Below, piece by piece: positions 43,802-58,950 of a DNA stretch of 64,000 nt. Origin of the DNA: Enterobacteria phage vB_EcoM_IME341; sequence record MH051917; one strand, 5' to 3'. The position numbers and the translations under genes were made by a program. The notes beneath the pieces are model-generated. The model had not been told where the DNA came from. It ran no database searches and saw nothing but the letters and a program-made list of their open reading frames with translations. Every line of letters starts with the position of its first letter. Position 1 is the stretch's first letter.

Positions 43802-43838
43802 GTTTACATCCCTCAGAGGACAGGGTATAATGTCCTCA
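43802..43838 (+). promoter_or_regulatory. early promoter cassette with 7-bp inverted repeat across the -10
   Basis: GTTTAC 43802-07; TATAAT 43826-31; GAGGACA vs TGTCCTC. Confidence 0.65.
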
Positions 43839-43873: not shown

Positions 43874-44467
43874 ATGAACACTTTAAAGAAAATCGTTGAA
43901 TTCATCCGTTCTAAACTGGGTACTGCAATGGCTCAGAACCTGTCAATCGAAGACCAGTATACTAAAGCTGCTTCTACCCTGATTGATAAAATCACTGAAC
44001 TCCAGACTGCTCATGTTAAGTCTGTGAATGAAGAAAAACGTATTCGGGCGTTGGCTAATGAAAAAGACCAGCTTGCTGCTTCTAAAGAACGTGAAATTCG
44101 TAAACTGATTGCCGAAGGCGCTGATGTCCAGGTACATGCTAAACTCGGCCTCCTTTATCGTCGTACGGCTACTCAGCTTCGTAAGAAAGCCGATGATTAT
44201 ATCGAAATGCGTAATGAAATTAAACTGAAGGTCAAGGAACTTGATGACTCTCGTCAGGAACTGGCTGTTAAGCTCGAGTACATCCGTGAAACTCGTAATA
44301 TGGCTGCCCTTGGTATTGCTACTGCCGATGATGTTGTTGAAATCGCTGCACTGACTAAGATTGATATTGAAGATACCCTGCTGCGTGTAGAAACGTTTAA
44401 AGGCCCACAGGTTGGAATGGATACGACTTCTGCTGATATCGACGACTACATTAATTCACTTAAGTAA
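43874..44467 (+). CDS. coiled-coil protein, PspA/IM30-like by composition
   Basis: 197 aa, heptad-rich; similarity judged by eye only. Confidence 0.45.
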
Positions 44468-44474
44468 TGTTACC

Positions 44475-44497
44475 GGGAGACTTCGGTCTCCCTATTT
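44475..44497 (+). terminator. hairpin, weak terminator
   Basis: GGGAGAC-TTCG-GTCTCCC then TATTT; inverted copy of the hairpin at 5852. Confidence 0.5.
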
Positions 44498-44515: not shown

Positions 44516-45058
44516 ATGAGTTTATATGATGACCTGATATCAAATATTGATTGGTTTAAACATAGCGGTCTTTCCCATGAAACTAATGCAGTTCTTTATA
44601 GAATTCGCCAAGACCTAGGTTATTCCAATGATTTCTTAAGTCGAACAAGTAGCCATGGACACACTACCAAATTGCCCTTTATCTTCGCTTTAGCTGAAGA
44701 CCTTTCTTTTGCAGAAGCTTTAGAAATTATTGACGTAAATCTGGGTATTCAACGAGTGGAATTCGCTGGATTATGCTATTCAGTATACGCTTTAAATGAA
44801 CCAAGTGATTGTAAACAGCTTGTTGATGCTGACGATGATTACCATTTAGTATGCTATTTGATGTTAGAAAATGGTGACCACTTTGGTATGGTCGACCGCC
44901 GCCCGAGTTATTCGGATATTAAAAATTACGATAAAGATGAGCTTATTATTTTGGCTAATGAGTATACATCAGAGATTCGAAAACAACAACGGAAGCTTAA
45001 TCGTTTTATTGCTGAATGTCGCGAATACGCTAAAGAGGTTCAAAATGGAACGGCCTAG
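44516..45058 (+). CDS. hypothetical protein, C-terminal ...NRFIAECRE
   Basis: 180-aa ORF after GGAGGAGAGGAG. Confidence 0.5.
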   Translation: MSLYDDLISNIDWFKHSGLSHETNAVLYRIRQDLGYSNDFLSRTSSHGHTTKLPFIFALAEDLSFAEALEIIDVNLGIQRVEFAGLCYSVYALNEPSDCKQLVDADDDYHLVCYLMLENGDHFGMVDRRPSYSDIKNYDKDELIILANEYTSEIRKQQRKLNRFIAECREYAKEVQNGTA

Positions 45059-45398
45059 TCTTTCATCACATGTTTATCAATTGGCTGAATATGATATTGC
45101 TATTTCCTTATTTATGGGAATTGTCACCGGTATGCTAGGAGGTTTGGTTGGTCTGGTAATGACCACGGTTATGGCGGCAATCGAAGGAGTCACGCCTATT
45201 GAGATGGGTTTTTATATGATAATCGCTCCGGCTGTCGTGGCTTATTTTATCCCTGTTGTGTATGATATTTGCCATACAAACGCTTTGAATGCTCCCATCC
45301 GTAAGAGATATGCTTTAGAGATGGCTAATTATAATGAGCATGTAAAACAAACTAAACGTAATGACCTTGAAATCTTTATTAAGGAATGTAAATCATGA
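45045..45398 (+). CDS. small membrane protein, C-terminal ...EIFIKECKS
   Basis: two TM segments; coupled to next gene. Confidence 0.5.
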   Translation: MERPSLSSHVYQLAEYDIAISLFMGIVTGMLGGLVGLVMTTVMAAIEGVTPIEMGFYMIIAPAVVAYFIPVVYDICHTNALNAPIRKRYALEMANYNEHVKQTKRNDLEIFIKECKS

Positions 45399-45685
45399 AT
45401 AAAATTGAAATCGAAATCCCAGAACACAACGATGAGAAATCTGCAGAAAAGGCTATCTATGCTCTTCTGAATAAAGTGAATACCATCGAACATGAATGTG
45501 AAGCTATTGCCGATAAGTATGGTATCCAATTCGGTACCGGTGATTATGGTTCAGGCCGTACATATTATCCTGTCGGTTATGAATGCTCCCAGTGGTTTAA
45601 AGATGAAATTGAAAACAACGGCGGTGAAGTTGAAAACGGCGTCGTTACAGTTGGTGCTTGGGTCTCCTCTTCAGCAATGTGCTAA
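45395..45685 (+). CDS. tandem-family member A (C-terminus GAWVSSSAMC)
   Basis: TAAGGA RBS; shared C-terminal motif. Confidence 0.6.
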   Translation: MNKIEIEIPEHNDEKSAEKAIYALLNKVNTIEHECEAIADKYGIQFGTGDYGSGRTYYPVGYECSQWFKDEIENNGGEVENGVVTVGAWVSSSAMC

Positions 45686-45694
45686 GGAAACGCT

Positions 45695-45976
45695 ATGATG
45701 AATGATAACCATAACAACCCGGAGCTTCTGGCCGCAGTAAAAGAAATCCATGAAGCTATTCGTCGTGCTGAGGAAATTGCAGACAAATATGAGACTCATT
45801 TTAATATATACCCTGCTCGCGGTATGGGCGGTGACTATTATTCTCCTGGCGCCCTGAAAGCTGACCTGGCCCACTGGGAAGAAGATGGTCATCCTGAATG
45901 GGCTATTGTTAATACTCATGACTATACAACTGACCTGGAAAATGGTGGTTGGGTGTCCTCTTCTTCTGAATGTTAA
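45695..45976 (+). CDS. tandem-family member B (C-terminus GGWVSSSSEC)
   Basis: TAAGGA RBS overlapping upstream stop; shared motif. Confidence 0.6.
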   Translation: MMNDNHNNPELLAAVKEIHEAIRRAEEIADKYETHFNIYPARGMGGDYYSPGALKADLAHWEEDGHPEWAIVNTHDYTTDLENGGWVSSSSEC

Positions 45977-45985
45977 GGAATTATT

Positions 45986-46183
45986 ATGTCTCGTGAATTA
46001 GATTGTGCAATCCGTACTGCAGCCGCAGCTATTGAAAACGTTATCCAGATTTGTAAAGAAGAACGCGAAGAAGCCGATATCTATATCGATGGTGTTCGTG
46101 ACCTAGAACGACATATCACGCTTTATAACGGTTGTATTACTATTAGTGGTACCTCTTGGGTGTCCTCCTCTTACGAATGCTAA
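45986..46183 (+). CDS. tandem-family member C (C-terminus TSWVSSSYEC)
   Basis: as above. Confidence 0.6.
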   Translation: MSRELDCAIRTAAAAIENVIQICKEEREEADIYIDGVRDLERHITLYNGCITISGTSWVSSSYEC

Positions 46184-46192
46184 GGAAATAAA

Positions 46193-46402
46193 ATGACTAT
46201 TGATGAAATTGAAAAACAAATCCGTGAATTAGTACGTAAAGGCCAGTCTGTGGCTGACGAAACAGGTCAGCACTTCCACGCTGGTGGCGAAGAATATATT
46301 CCAGCTTCTAGTCCGGAATATGATGATTACGAATGGGTCCGTGATGACTACGGTATTCCTGAAGGTGAAGGTTTCTGGTTTAGCTCCTCTATGTCTTGCT
46401 AA
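46193..46402 (+). CDS. tandem-family member D (C-terminus GFWFSSSMSC)
   Basis: as above. Confidence 0.6.
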   Translation: MTIDEIEKQIRELVRKGQSVADETGQHFHAGGEEYIPASSPEYDDYEWVRDDYGIPEGEGFWFSSSMSC

Positions 46403-46412
46403 GGTGATAAAA

Positions 46413-46637
46413 ATGACTGATATTAATGAATTAGAAAAAGCGGCACTTGAACTGGCTGCACTGTATAAGAAAGTAAAAGATATGGCTTCTGCTCAGGATT
46501 TTGGTGTTGAGCTCGATGATTATGACGGTGAAGTTCGTCTCGAAGATTGGCTGAATAGCTCTTGTTATGGTGAAGAAGCTGGTCGCACCTTCGTTGCTCG
46601 GTCCGATGGTAAAATCTGGTACCCAAGCTCATGCTAA
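46413..46637 (+). CDS. tandem-family member E (C-terminus KIWYPSSC)
   Basis: as above; degenerate motif. Confidence 0.55.
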   Translation: MTDINELEKAALELAALYKKVKDMASAQDFGVELDDYDGEVRLEDWLNSSCYGEEAGRTFVARSDGKIWYPSSC

Positions 46638-46858
46638 AATTGAAAAAACGATACATTCGTAAAATAAACGGTCTTCGCGATTATGCCAAAGGTTGGCCAC
46701 TAAGTATTATTATGGCTGATAGACACCCACGTTATAATACCGAGATGACTTATTACAAAAAGTATGATTCGTATTGTCGGTCTAAAGCAGGCCGTTTAGA
46801 TGGTTCTTACGAAGACTATTTTGGTAAAAAACCTACTCGTGTTTCGTTAGGAAAATAA
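46631..46858 (+). CDS. hypothetical basic protein
   Basis: 75-aa ORF, weak RBS. Confidence 0.35.
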   Translation: MLKLKKRYIRKINGLRDYAKGWPLSIIMADRHPRYNTEMTYYKKYDSYCRSKAGRLDGSYEDYFGKKPTRVSLGK

Positions 46859-46888
46859 TTTAACCACATGGATGTGGTAGGAGGACTT

Positions 46889-47218
46889 ATGCATAAAGAT
46901 TCAGTATTCAAATATCTTTTGAAAACAGATAAAGAATTCTATATGAATGGGCAAGCCTTCTTGTTCGTTCGTGGTAAACGTGAGATGTTTTACAAATGCG
47001 ACCTCTCAATGCACCATCATATGTATCACACCCATGGCGAGCCTATACTGGGGTTCTCTGGTGACGAAACTAGACGTATAGCTATGTACTACGACCATTT
47101 TAAGCTCAATGATTGTGGTGACAACGCTCTGGTCTGGAATCCATCTTGGCGTCGTTGGGATACGGTAGACAACGATAAATTATTTTTAGAATATTGCAGA
47201 AGTGATGTACAACTCTAA
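46889..47218 (+). CDS. hypothetical His-rich protein
   Basis: ATG 46889 after AGGAGGA. Confidence 0.45.
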   Translation: MHKDSVFKYLLKTDKEFYMNGQAFLFVRGKREMFYKCDLSMHHHMYHTHGEPILGFSGDETRRIAMYYDHFKLNDCGDNALVWNPSWRRWDTVDNDKLFLEYCRSDVQL

Positions 47219-47234
47219 AAATACGTGTTACTAT
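47207..47234 (+). promoter_or_regulatory. early promoter variant (TGTACA -35, TACTAT -10)
   Basis: leader ACACAAACATGAGGAGAAC shared with the denV leader. Confidence 0.45.
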
Positions 47235-47261
47235 TACCCTACACAAACATGAGGAGAACAT

Positions 47262-47501
47262 ATGTGGTATTACGCTCCGATGTCCGATAAGTCTAATGAA
47301 CCGGTACGCATTACTCGTGCCAAGTTTAAAAAGATTTATGGCTTTGCTTATAAGAAGTCTGATTACGGTGTTCGTTTTGAAGATGCTCACTGTATCAATG
47401 ACCCTTATGCAGAAGAAATTTCTAATGAGATAATTCCTATCGTTGAGAGTAATTCCAATGATATGTGGGAATTGCATAACACTTACGTTGCCGAAATTTA
47501 A
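47262..47501 (+). CDS. hypothetical protein
   Basis: 79-aa ORF after GAGGAG. Confidence 0.5.
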   Translation: MWYYAPMSDKSNEPVRITRAKFKKIYGFAYKKSDYGVRFEDAHCINDPYAEEISNEIIPIVESNSNDMWELHNTYVAEI

Positions 47502-47520
47502 GTTTACTGAGGAAAATATT

Positions 47521-48480
47521 ATGATGCTAGTTATTGGTTCTCGCGCACTGCACCACGCTGGTCTGATTGAAAATAAGTATATCGAAAATTCTGATTGGGA
47601 TTTCATTGCCGACCAAGGCTCATGGAACCACTTTAAAGCTCGGATGTTCGGCGCCCATGTACACGTTGACAATCCTGATGTTCAGGCTTTCAAATGTATG
47701 CATAATGGTAAAGAAACCTATTTCGAAGCTTATATCGTCCGTGCTCTGACTAACGTACGTGAAATCACTGGTGAGCTCCAAGACGAAGATTTCACCTCAA
47801 GTTATCGTCTCCTGAAATATGCTGAAAATCGTATTAAAAAGGACCGTCTTACAGGTTTCTATTGGGCTACGCCTGATATCTGTCTGGCTATCAAAACCTC
47901 TCATCGTTTCCTGAAGAATAATCCTTTCTTCTTGAAAACTATGTCCCACATCAAATACCTTCGTAATAAAGGTATCACCCTGAATGAAGAACTCCAGGAA
48001 ATTATGCTGCAGCGTCAAAAAGAAACGTTGAGCTATTCCCACCCTAAATTGGATGTAAACAAATCATCGTTCTTTAACGATACCATTTATACGCTAGACC
48101 ACGACTCTATCCATGAAGCCGTGGCATTGGCAGGGCGCCCGGCATATACCTTTTATATGAAGGAAGGTTCTGAAGTCATGACCTCTCGTGAGAAGTTCGA
48201 GGCTTTGCCTGAAGCTATTAAACTGGCTGGTGTATATGAAGAAACTTGTGTCCTGGCACTAGAACGTTCACAGGTTCCTAATGACTTCAATATTTCACCA
48301 TCATTAAGTTTCTATATGGCTCTTGAGAAAGTGTGTACCTCAATCACTTCAGGTTGGTTCCGTGAGTACGCCTGGGAAAACTACCAAGCTGTGGTTAATA
48401 TGTACAAGACTTTAGGTGAAAACGACTACATCAAACGATTCCAAGATAACCATCATTTAATTCGTCCTTTCGAAAAATAA
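47521..48480 (+). CDS. hypothetical protein with possible G-S...D-x-D nucleotidyltransferase-like N-terminus
   Basis: ATG 47521 after GAGGAAAA; IGSRALHHAG...SDWDF; weak. Confidence 0.5.
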   Translation: MMLVIGSRALHHAGLIENKYIENSDWDFIADQGSWNHFKARMFGAHVHVDNPDVQAFKCMHNGKETYFEAYIVRALTNVREITGELQDEDFTSSYRLLKYAENRIKKDRLTGFYWATPDICLAIKTSHRFLKNNPFFLKTMSHIKYLRNKGITLNEELQEIMLQRQKETLSYSHPKLDVNKSSFFNDTIYTLDHDSIHEAVALAGRPAYTFYMKEGSEVMTSREKFEALPEAIKLAGVYEETCVLALERSQVPNDFNISPSLSFYMALEKVCTSITSGWFREYAWENYQAVVNMYKTLGENDYIKRFQDNHHLIRPFEK

Positions 48481-48492
48481 TTGCATAAAATT

Positions 48493-48532
48493 GTTTACAA
48501 GGTCTATAGGCATGATACTATAGACCTATCAA
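48493..48532 (+). promoter_or_regulatory. early promoter cassette, 45-bp identical copy of 39207
   Basis: identical GTTTACAAGGTCTATAGGCATGATACTATAGACCTATCAAAACAA. Confidence 0.7.
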
Positions 48533-48558
48533 AACAACAGAGTGAAATGGAGAATAAA

Positions 48559-48771
48559 ATGAAACTTTCTAACCAAGCAATCAACATGTTAAACGAAGTT
48601 CGTGCAGCTGGTGCTAAATGCCTGATGGTTAACACTCGTGACGGTGACCTTCGTCAAGCATTCGGTGAATTGAAATCTGCTGACCTGGTTAAATGTTCAG
48701 TTGGTATCGGTAACGCACTTCGTGTATCCTTATCCCCTAAAGGTAAAATGTACTTTTTCAACAAAAAGTAA
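48559..48771 (+). CDS. hypothetical protein
   Basis: ATG 48559 after GGAGA; 70 aa. Confidence 0.5.
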   Translation: MKLSNQAINMLNEVRAAGAKCLMVNTRDGDLRQAFGELKSADLVKCSVGIGNALRVSLSPKGKMYFFNKK

Positions 48772-48785
48772 GTGAGGAAAATATT

Positions 48786-49472
48786 ATGAACGGTCCAAAA
48801 ACTTTTAATTCTAAAGCTCGTGCAGTAGGTGGTTTCGCTGGTAAAATTTCTAATGATAAAATCAAAAACGAACCTATGTTCTTCAACAGCTCGTTGGCCT
48901 TCGCTTTTGATAATGGTGGCCCTATTACTCGCAGCTTCATCATGAACCTACCGGATGATTGGAACACTGACCGGGTTGTATTTGATTCTCGTGTTCATAT
49001 GCTGATGCCTGGCTGGTACCCTGCTATCCCAGGTTATCACCATGATGATGTACCACGTCCGGATATTCCGGTTGGCCAACACTTTATTACCGCAGGGCAG
49101 CCTGATTATGATAATCCTCGTTACCATTCTGAACATATTCTTGGTCTTGTTAACGCTGATGTGTGTCCTACCCATTTTGCAACCGGAACTGCGCAATTTA
49201 GCCAGATTCCTGAAGGCGAACTTATCTATCGCCAGTGGCATAAAGAAGTTCTGGAAAAAATTGAGTCCAATGAATTAACCAAGTGGGATGCTCCTGACCG
49301 CACGTTGCTCCAATTTGATTGGCAGACATGGCATACAGGTTCTCGTGCAGTAAGTAACGGTTGGCGCTGGTTTGGTCGTGTCTCTCGTAATACCGACCGT
49401 GTTAAAAAGATTACTAATGAAATCCGTGTTAATGCTCAAGTTTATCTGGAATTCCCTATGGAGGGCTGGTAA
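48786..49472 (+). CDS. hypothetical protein with H-H-D-D...H metal-binding-like motif
   Basis: 228-aa ORF after GAGGAAAA; motif-level only. Confidence 0.5.
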   Translation: MNGPKTFNSKARAVGGFAGKISNDKIKNEPMFFNSSLAFAFDNGGPITRSFIMNLPDDWNTDRVVFDSRVHMLMPGWYPAIPGYHHDDVPRPDIPVGQHFITAGQPDYDNPRYHSEHILGLVNADVCPTHFATGTAQFSQIPEGELIYRQWHKEVLEKIESNELTKWDAPDRTLLQFDWQTWHTGSRAVSNGWRWFGRVSRNTDRVKKITNEIRVNAQVYLEFPMEGW

Positions 49473-50059
49473 TGGCCCTTTATGAACCCGGGTGTATGGG
49501 CATTGATGTAAACTTCATCCGTCGGTCGGAAAATGCCGGAATTATTATCCCAAGAGGTGAGAATATGATTATTAAAAAGTCCTGGCGAAATCTCGATGAC
49601 GGTGATGAAGGAATTTCAGCCAGTACAATAGATTGGTCAGGTTGTACTGCTGAAATGAAACAGCTTTTAATTGAGGAATATAAAATGGGTTATATCGTAA
49701 ACGGTTGGCAACCTGAACCACATAAAGAGCAGACTCCGGACCCGTTGATTTGTTATAGTAAAAAATACGGCTTTCGCGCATGGAGTGACGAATATGACAA
49801 ATTAGTGAGTTCTAGGTTCTATGTTTGGATGGGAATATTATTTTTTCCACTCCTTTGGTTTTTCCTGACAACAGATAATGACCTGCCTATTTGTGTATTC
49901 GCTTCAGCGATGTCTGCGGCTATCTCGGGTCTTATTGCGTCATTTTTATGGACCTCGGTTATCGAAGTACCTTTTCGTATTTCTAAAGTTAAAAAGGTAT
50001 ATGATGATATCTCCAAGAAAAATACATTAAACTCTTTTATTGAGGAATGCCGTAAATGA
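49472..50059 (+). CDS. membrane protein, C-terminal ...NSFIEECRK
   Basis: 195 aa, C-terminal TM segments. Confidence 0.5.
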   Translation: MALYEPGCMGIDVNFIRRSENAGIIIPRGENMIIKKSWRNLDDGDEGISASTIDWSGCTAEMKQLLIEEYKMGYIVNGWQPEPHKEQTPDPLICYSKKYGFRAWSDEYDKLVSSRFYVWMGILFFPLLWFFLTTDNDLPICVFASAMSAAISGLIASFLWTSVIEVPFRISKVKKVYDDISKKNTLNSFIEECRK

Positions 50060-58767: not shown

Positions 58768-58950
58768 ATGAAAACCGAAGAAAAGCACTTAAAGCTTGAA
58801 GAGCTTATCGAGATATATTCTGGAGCAGTGGCCAGATTTGAAACTGCGTTTTGCAACGATTACCCAGCTAGTGAATGCAGCAGGCTTTCTAAAGAAGAAG
58901 ATGAAGCTCTTAAAGAGTTGTTAAATTTTATTAAACAAAATGTGAAATGA
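58768..58950 (+). CDS. hypothetical protein
   Basis: 60-aa ORF. Confidence 0.4.
   Translation: MKTEEKHLKLEELIEIYSGAVARFETAFCNDYPASECSRLSKEEDEALKELLNFIKQNVK

Follow-up and report, generated by a model that had tools for sequence, protein, structure and literature searches.

Proteins encoded in the accessory cluster between e.6 and nudE of Enterobacteria phage vB_EcoM_IME341 share a short tail at or near their C-termini, and carriers of this tail occupy the same cluster in many Tevenvirinae. The tail was recognized as the motif F-I-x-E-C-[KR] in orf125, orf124 and e.2, within a 64,000-nucleotide (nt) stretch of the phage genome (sequence record MH051917; one strand, 5′ to 3′) that is here called the window. 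Judged from the sequences of its carriers, the conserved unit is the peptide [LIF]-E-x-[FW]-[IV]-x-x-C-R-[K/R/E...], followed by 0–15 further residues. The best explanation of the whole, which we hold to be moderately probable, is a protein-level C-terminal module that accommodates flexible placement of the Shine-Dalgarno (SD) sequence of the next gene and that is inferred to form a docking or assembly helix.

Carriers of the tail in the window

The region is a 5.8-kb stretch 100% identical to Escherichia phage IME08 (Straboviridae, Tevenvirinae, Dhakavirus), in reversed orientation relative to the IME08 record, and its accessory genes are ordered tRNAs – e.8 – e.6 – ... – e.2 – nudE – e (lysozyme). 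A six-frame translation of the 64 kb yields exactly three instances of F-I-x-E-C-[KR], at 45005, 45375 and 50036, against ~0.006 expected from the window's amino-acid composition (P(≥3) ~3e-8). The three carriers and their tails are organized as follows.

44516–45058, + strand: orf125 (IME08_gp125), 180 amino acids (aa), no predicted transmembrane (TM) segment; the first carrier, directly after e.6.
45005–45022, + strand: orf125 tail F-I-A-E-C-R (...NRFIAECRE...), with no overlap with an SD or a start codon.
45035–45047, + strand: SD GAGGT (45035–45039) and ATG (45045) of orf124, 13–25 nt beyond the orf125 motif; SD spacing 5.
45045–45398, + strand: orf124 (gp124), 117 aa; two-TM hairpin, basic linker of ~35 aa, and tail.
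45375–45392, + strand: orf124 tail F-I-K-E-C-K (...EIFIKECKS, then stop), the K-E codons AAGGAA (45381–45386) forming the SD for gp123.
49565–50059, + strand: e.2 (gp113), 164 aa from 49565, or 195 aa if the start is at 49472.
50036–50053, + strand: e.2 tail F-I-E-E-C-R (...NSFIEECRK, then stop), the E-E codons GAGGAA (50042–50047) forming the SD for gp112.

At two of the three junctions the tail and the start of the next gene are interleaved. The ATG of gp123 (45395) overlaps the orf124 stop in an ATGA (45395–45398), with AAGGAA at a spacing of 8 nt, and the ATG of gp112 (50056) similarly overlaps the e.2 stop (ATGA, 50056–50059), with GAGGAA at 8 nt. The orf125 protein runs 11 residues beyond the motif to its stop (...ECREYAKEVQNGTA, that is ...FIAECREYAKEVQNGTA), its motif codons GCT GAA TGT CGC contain no SD, and the orf124 ATG is 40 nt downstream of the motif's Phe codon, within a 14-nt overlap with the end of orf125 (45045–45058).

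A reading made from the sequence alone had proposed that open reading frames (ORFs) starting at 44516, 45045 and 49472 end with the same motif and that in each case its codons overlap the next ribosome-binding site (RBS) and start. Both statements apply to orf124 and e.2 (AAGGAA, GAGGAA and ATGA) but not to orf125, where the motif precedes the stop by 11 residues and the next gene has a separate GAGGT SD. The motif as then written is real and beyond chance but too narrow: its E stands at a variable position, where it is just the most frequent residue, and a probable further, diverged carrier, orf118, was missed. The description of two carriers as small membrane proteins is borne out, orf124 and e.2 each having two TM helices predicted by hydropathy, in agreement with the AlphaFold2 (AF2) model of e.2.

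Profile searches place the three proteins in separate families. orf125 is a full-length member of phrog_8788 (E = 5e-118) and orf124 of phrog_2330 (orf124/e.3-like; E = 1.8e-45), and e.2 matches phrog_2203 (E = 6e-72) across residues 32–195 of its long ORF; PF26896 is precomputed for a database protein (P0001) 100% identical to the e.2 of the window. e.2 contains a conserved N-terminal domain (W..DD...G......DW.GC), a two-TM hairpin, and a helix continuing to the tail. The families phrog_2203/PF26896, phrog_2330 and phrog_8788 are defined separately and carry no functional assignment, and in the descriptions consulted none records a tail shared across families.

Two of the start codons are annotated in more than one way. 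The gp124 start is at 44871 in the IME08 record while phage MX01 annotates the equivalent of 45045, and the latter is most likely correct. The e.2 start is ambiguous: 49472 has a TAATG overlap with gp114 and a GGAGGG SD, and 49565 has a GAGGTGA SD. The second of these sites corresponds to the beginning of the e.2 profile and to the e.2 start in T4, RB69 and the Kanagawaviruses.

Conservation of the tail across carrier families

The T4 proteins carry the same tail, with e.5 ending ...EKFVKECREYVKAITIPSK, e.3 ending ...KEFVIDCRKIK and e.2 ending ...NNFITECRKLK, each at the stop. T4 e.4 has a variant, ...MKFVKESRCKSQS, in which the Cys is moved by two residues (FVKESRC). Across the six frames of the complete T4 genome there are four matches to F[IV]xxC[RK], three of which are the e.5, e.3 and e.2 tails; with a position-specific scoring matrix (PSSM) built from the carriers, T4 e.4 ranks third genome-wide. 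The e.2 gene of T4 (AF158101; locus L002, 6001–6480) is broken by two in-frame stops and carries a 102-aa annotation; its downstream part is still in frame and keeps both the FITECRKLK tail and the ATGA overlap with nudE. Intact 162-aa e.2 genes are present in other Tequatroviruses (L015, L016, L018).

A wider survey used 33 loci from viral contigs, anchored on the neighbouring gene e.6 (e.6 identity from 100% down to 51%). A relaxed form of the motif is present in 97 ORF tails on the coding strand downstream of e.6 and in three on the opposite strand; seven further cases lie nominally upstream of e.6, six of which are the same cluster on short contigs. The carriers lie in the e.5 to e.2 accessory cluster, which is flanked by e.6 and nudE, with 2–5 strict and 1–3 degenerate carriers per genome; an e.5-type gene is always first and an e.2-type gene usually last. 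They are found in about ten T-even lineages, among them Tequatrovirus, Mosigvirus (RB69, with five carriers), Dhakavirus, Kanagawavirus, Karamvirus-like Enterobacter phages, Moonvirus, Jiaodavirus, Klebsiella phage Marfa, Escherichia phage EcS1 and Pectobacterium phage PM2. Tegunavirus TG1 and Slopekvirus phiKp_3, which also lack the e.6/e.5 cluster, have no convincing carriers within 9 kb of nudE.

Support that is independent of how the motif was selected comes from clustering of tail-trimmed proteins, from the e.2 and e.5 alignments, and from an e.2 profile search. When 710 ORFs of the e.6 to nudE intervals were clustered after removal of their last 25 residues, 13 clusters proved to be ~100% motif-positive: e.2 (19/20), broad e.5 (19/21), T4-type e.5 (7/8), orf125 (9/9), orf124 (9/9), T4-type e.3 (6/6), and seven others at 100%. 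The exceptions within them are truncated or frameshifted copies. Seven further clusters have degenerate tails (FIRNVRRK, FVKE[SI]RC, FVMEMRK, FLKEMRK, W[IV]KGCRK and F[IA]xx[IVL]R), and the motif is in none of the remaining clusters (nudE, e, denV, the W-S-S-S-x-x-C family and others).

The alignments place the tail among the best conserved parts of these proteins and, for the core residues, strongly support the protein tail that was one of the two alternatives put forward from the sequence alone. Among e.2 proteins (down to 30% identity) the tail F, I, C and R make up four of the 12 invariant columns, and a second invariant Cys is at position 27. In the e.5-superfamily alignment (down to 13–21% identity) the tail F, C and R make up three of the five invariant columns. 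A search of 1.84 billion representative proteins with the whole e.2 profile, including the conserved N-terminal domain and the TM hairpin, gave only 18 matches, and all 14 sequences retrieved end in [FW]-I-x-x-C-R.

Outside the tail, relationships among the carriers are remote or not detectable. orf125 is a remote homologue of T4 e.5, with which it shares its position directly after e.6; the hhalign probability is 95% over 168 columns but 33% over 124 columns with the tail removed, and homology outside the tail is weak. orf124 and T4 e.3 have the same architecture and fall in one BLAST single-linkage cluster as full sequences but in separate clusters (23 and 33) without their last 25 aa, suggesting that this relationship is remote as well. 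By hhalign, e.3/orf124 are related to family c8, and family c3 (about 95 aa, no predicted TM) to family c7. Between the e.2, e.3, e.5 and c3 groups, hhalign matches consist only of 14–21 tail columns and are gone when the tail is removed, and the weak PHROG cross-matches of orf124 to phrog_2203 (E = 0.015) and of orf125 to phrog_2607 are tail-driven. The carriers thus fall into at least four groups without detectable mutual similarity outside the tail. Whether these are extremely diverged paralogues or secondary acquirers of the tail, the tail is under a shared constraint.

One further gene in the window emerged from a relaxed-pattern scan.

46868–47218, + strand: orf118, 116 aa, no predicted TM; ends ...FLEYCRSDVQL (DKLFLEYCRSDVQL) at the stop, with F-L-E-Y-C-R at 47183–47200.

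Because orf118 aligns with the c3 carrier family (hhalign 58% over 49 columns), it is a probable diverged fourth carrier. A database protein of 106 aa (P0074) has the N-terminus of a T4-type e.4 (MSKPSLYLPS...) followed by the C-terminal half of e.2 that bears TM and tail, with e.3 deleted, and this e.4/e.2 chimera shows recombination among carriers. A 60-aa ORF at 58768, outside the cluster, ends ...KELLNFIKQNVK and has the best coding-strand PSSM score outside the cluster (11.7 bits), but it has neither Cys nor Arg at its end and is probably a chance look-alike.

Codons, junctions and Shine-Dalgarno placement

Statistics on codons and junctions were collected from carriers chosen with a regular expression in which F, [IV], C and [RK] are fixed. 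These tails make free use of synonymous codons, with Phe as TTT (72) or TTC (33), Cys as TGT (55) or TGC (50), seven codons for Ile/Val, and six for Arg (6–8 at the R position). Ten Dhakavirus orthologues of orf125 illustrate this at short range: Cys is TGT in five and TGC in five, and Arg is CGC in six and CGT in four, with the residues constant. Among e.2 orthologues the only amino-acid variant within the motif is E to K at the first x (GAG to AAG), which keeps RAGGAA.

The position of the next gene varies widely. Its start is located +19 to about +100 nt from the Phe codon and its SD at nt 5–11, 15–21 or 23–86, and the variable residues of the motif change with this distance. Where the start is at +19 to +22 (n = 30), the x-x pair is KE, EE or KG, which give AAGGAA, GAGGAA or AAAGG, and is SD-like in 29 of 30. 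Where it is at +25 to +29 (n = 34), the x-x residues differ widely and one pair of 34 is SD-like, and it is instead the Arg and next codon that are SD-like (33/34); for starts at +26 the Arg is AGG in 14 of 16. Where it is at +32 or beyond (n = 41), these two places are SD-like in 0 and 2 of 41, and 31 of the tails have CGN for Arg. T4 e.2 and e.3 have their SD after the Cys, in the Arg-Lys codons, and the orf125, T4 e.5, Kanagawavirus e.5 and c7 families keep the peptide 40–95 nt from the next start. E is at the second x in only about 38% of families.

RNA structure shows no comparable conservation. The orf124 and e.2 junction RNAs are unstructured (fold z = +0.55 and +1.04). At the orf125/orf124 junction a hairpin at 44991–45064 pairs the motif Phe-Ile codons with the orf124 AUG (−23 kcal/mol, z = −2.16), and as modelled it would give classical structure-mediated coupling at that one junction. 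It is restricted to the closest relatives: the consensus energy is −5.4 kcal/mol, one of 17 pairs covaries, and the 3′ arm differs.

The synonymous codons, the variable geometry and the lack of a conserved RNA structure together show that conservation of F-I..C-R reflects selection on the peptide; as read from these comparisons, it is the amino acids F/W, I/V, C and R that are selected, not the nucleotides. Since the genes are packed end to end, the RBS of the next gene falls in or near the tail, and the same comparisons show that the SD occupies those degenerate positions whose spacing to the start is suitable, either the two x residues or the Arg codon (AGG/AGA) plus the next codon. This distance dependence explains GAGGAA and AAGGAA in e.2 and orf124, where x-E is shaped at least in part by the SD, a genuine case of dual coding over a fixed peptide.

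The alternative raised in the sequence-only reading, that the motif is a by-product of a coupling element, with TTTATT-RAGGAA-TGY... conserved as an RBS and spacer and the peptide incidental, accounts for the two variable residues and the choice of Arg codon but not for the F-I..C-R core. It draws on the x-E codons that serve as SD before an ATGA overlap in two of the three cases in the window, on the six motif codons of orf124, which are nucleotide-invariant in ten Dhakavirus orthologues, and on the 29 of 30 SD-like pairs at the shortest distance. However, the invariant residues do not make up the SD and use many synonymous codons, the SD-forming positions are the variable ones, the T4 e.2 and e.3 SDs are displaced into the Arg-Lys codons, no RNA structure is conserved, and the orf125, e.5 and c7 families keep the peptide at 40–95 nt from the next start. 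As the cause of the motif it is ruled out by codon diversity, variable geometry and non-junction carriers, and we give it hardly any credence. Homologues that are coupled but lack the motif would have counted against the sequence-only reading; the opposite is seen, with the motif kept while coupling geometry changes.

An ATGA stop/start overlap with an SD inside the upstream ORF is a general bacterial and phage arrangement that is common in T4. The orf124–gp123 and e.2–gp112 junctions have this textbook geometry, recognized here from the DNA, but what translational coupling accounts for is limited to the two variable residues and the choice of Arg codon, and does not extend to F-I..C-R, which persists where the junction lies elsewhere.

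Possible roles of the tail and neighbouring elements

The carriers include both membrane and non-membrane proteins. The e.2 and e.3/e.4 types have a two-TM hairpin and a basic segment, and the e.5 type, c3 and c7 have no predicted TM. Because the segment after the last TM is net basic, it is predicted to be cytoplasmic by the positive-inside rule. In a strict scan, 16 to 72 residues separate TM and motif, depending on the family, and an early crude estimate of 31–42 aa, which had suggested a fixed ruler, was rejected. The AF2 model of e.2 (mean pLDDT, the predicted local distance difference test score, 66.5) has helices at 74–102 and 109–163, the second unbroken to the motif; that of orf125, a poor model (mean pLDDT 48), places the motif in a C-terminal helix at 154–176. 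Positions −3 (L/I/F, 80%) and −2 (Glu, 55%) are conserved although they were not used in selection, and −3 with F(0), I(+1) and C(+4) forms an i, i+3, i+4, i+7 hydrophobic stripe with Glu(−2) and Arg(+5) on its flanks. Several related clusters have V, I, M or S in place of the Cys, which favours a packing role over obligatory thiol chemistry.

We propose that the tail, which ends a predicted alpha-helix, serves as a cytoplasmic, membrane-proximal docking or assembly helix. Through it the carriers may all bind a single partner or may associate among themselves, as would be the case if an e.5-type protein were recruited to the membrane carriers. The Cys would act mainly as a small hydrophobic residue. 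The product of e.6 (43874–44467, 197 aa) is a candidate partner on grounds of co-occurrence only, since TG1 and phiKp_3 have neither e.6 nor the carriers near nudE. It is the best-conserved protein in the cluster (51–100% identity across all carrier lineages) and, as read from its sequence, seems largely helical or coiled-coil, its sole weak Pfam match being to a coiled-coil region; a PspA-like identity was dropped for want of Pfam support.

Several points weigh against this proposal. The AF2 models come from shallow alignments and have moderate to low confidence. Amphipathicity is not significant, the median hydrophobic moment being 0.34 against 0.28 for shuffles with p<0.05 in one of 21 families. 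Conservation at the four positions fixed by the regular expression is by construction, and the near-invariance of the Cys in most families could reflect metal or thiol chemistry and not packing. Pfam and PDB searches with e.2, the e.5 superfamily, T4 e.3, e.4 and e.5, and also e.6 gave nothing significant. Limited literature searches found no paper on the tail or on the function of e.2–e.5, which is weak evidence, gene names such as 'e.5' being poor search terms.

Among other accounts of the peptide, the one that fares best is that the tail is a relic of a tandem-duplicated ancestor, its last helix kept for each protein's own folding, stability or membrane-interface packing with no common partner. 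The tandem arrangement of the carriers within one cluster, the relatedness of some groups (orf125–e.5, e.3–c8, c3–c7), the e.4/e.2 chimera and the replaceable Cys are all consistent with it. However, the same tail is on TM-hairpin and non-TM proteins with dissimilar cores, such that a single intramolecular packing role is hard to picture, and it is the best-conserved segment where cores have diverged to 13–21% identity; we therefore regard a relic as rather unlikely. A second account, in which Cys-Arg is a metal-binding, redox or covalently modified site (for instance an intersubunit Zn/Fe site, or in e.2 a pairing with the Cys of DW.GC), is improbable. It would fit the Cys that is invariant in the 13 clusters and in 14/14 retrieved e.2 representatives, the second invariant Cys of e.2, and the predicted cytoplasmic location of the tail, in which the thiol would be reduced. 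Against it, related clusters have FIRNVRRK, FVMEMRK, FLKEMRK and FIQGIR, T4 e.4 shifts the Cys by two (FVKESRC), and each tail has a single Cys with no His/Cys partner pattern.

Arrest peptides that regulate a downstream cistron are known in SecM–secA, MifM–yidC2 and VemP–secDF2, and the tail resembles them in that its amino-acid sequence is conserved and that it lies close to the end of small, often membrane-targeted proteins, just upstream of a stop and next start. It could accordingly be imagined to pause the ribosome near the next start and tune coupled translation, possibly with release by insertion of the TM segments that lie upstream in many carriers. The aromatic-aliphatic pair and essential-looking Arg also resemble W-I...R of SecM and MifM, which provides a lead and not a test. 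Nevertheless, there is no tunnel-length ruler, because the TM-to-motif linker varies so widely; several carrier families (e.5-type, c3, c7) lack both TM and signal sequence, the downstream SD is not sequestered by any conserved hairpin, and the downstream genes are unrelated and functionally heterogeneous, with starts 40–95 nt away in the e.5-type and c7 families. An arrest function is thus very improbable.

The internal proteins of T4 (IpI, IpII, IpIII and the polymorphic IP-locus ORFs) have an N-terminal capsid targeting sequence (CTS; MKTYQEFIAE-like) that is cleaved by gp21 at (L/I)-x-E and directs packaging into the head. The tail is similar in being a short conserved terminal peptide on otherwise unrelated, fast-turnover accessory proteins from a hyperplastic T-even region, the CTS-bearing region adjoining the cluster, and differs in being C-terminal and on early-type membrane and non-TM proteins. 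PeSLs (promoter/stem-loop cassettes) are intergenic elements of a promoter and terminator-like hairpin that are reported to mediate modular shuffling in T4-like hyperplastic regions (PMC4122927). They too are recurrent short conserved elements at the boundaries of variable ORFs, but as intergenic nucleotide motifs, whereas the tail is coding and conserved only as amino acids. That the tail is a DNA-level recombination module of the PeSL or CTS-segment type, or a C-terminal version of the CTS and gp21 site (I-x-E), gains something from the hyperplastic cluster, the chimera and the superficial resemblance of the CTS MKTYQEFIAEAR to ..FIAECR, but can be dismissed: the in-register flanks of the three window tails are 28–42% identical with longest shared strings of 7–9 nt, codons differ freely, the tail PSSM gives CTSs −12 to +4.9 bits and strict-motif carriers 17.8–27.7, the E of I-x-E is not conserved, and integral membrane proteins are among the carriers. 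The three tails are therefore not DNA repeats, and the same flank divergence rules out their recent duplication or gene conversion. The CTS/gp21 resemblance is not significant on the PSSM, and a PeSL-type mobile boundary cassette was rejected since the element is coding and unconserved as DNA.

Returning to the docking helix, a more speculative extension, offered tentatively and by analogy, is that the tail could be a C-terminal 'address tag', an early-gene counterpart of the N-terminal CTS, that gathers the 3–6 otherwise unrelated carriers of a genome at a common cytoplasmic, membrane-proximal partner or in one hetero-oligomeric complex. These carriers would comprise the e.5-type and c3-type proteins without predicted TM together with several two-TM proteins that differ in their N-terminal domains.

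The genes of orf125, orf124 and e.2 may be called early by reasonable inference, because sequences matching promoters are located upstream of e.6 and orf115. The matches are by consensus only, and the overall number of promoter-like sites is not above shuffle expectation.

43803–43831, + strand: best match to a sigma-70/T4-early-type promoter (TTTACA–17–TATAAT), upstream of e.6.
48494–48521: second sigma-70/T4-early-type promoter match, upstream of orf115 to e.2.

In the 48 nt that separate e.6 from orf125 is a GC-rich hairpin, GGGAGAC-TTCG-GTCTCCC with a UUCG tetraloop (44475–44492), directly upstream of the orf125 SD (GGAGGAGAGGAG); it was not called in a terminator scan because no T-run follows it. 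Between 45395 and 46637 are five tandem small paralogous ORFs (phrog_899; the gp123–gp120 region), each ending W-[VFY]-[SP]-S-S-x-x-C with the Cys as the last residue, and TAAGG plus A/T serves as the next SD after four of the five. The cluster has here a second conserved C-terminal tail, distinct from the first, and related families are present in 28–29 of 37 loci.

Significance of the tail

Limited literature searches found no earlier description of the tail as a cross-family feature. It can be put to use in annotation, where it recognizes carriers that profile searches place in separate families and supports the short starts of orf124 (45045) and possibly e.2 (49565). The tails also provide a natural example of dual coding, with a fixed peptide and a movable SD in the same 18–24 nt, that is relevant to phage recoding and genome refactoring. 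By annotation, e.2, e.3, e.4, e.5 and dozens of ORFan families in the hyperplastic cluster are without function, even in T4, the best-studied lytic phage. A strict tail across unrelated families predicts a common partner or hetero-complex and offers an experimental handle, with the tail as pull-down bait and point mutants at F, C and R. If the address tag is real, new N-terminal 'payload' domains could be swapped in host–phage arms races while the tag is kept.

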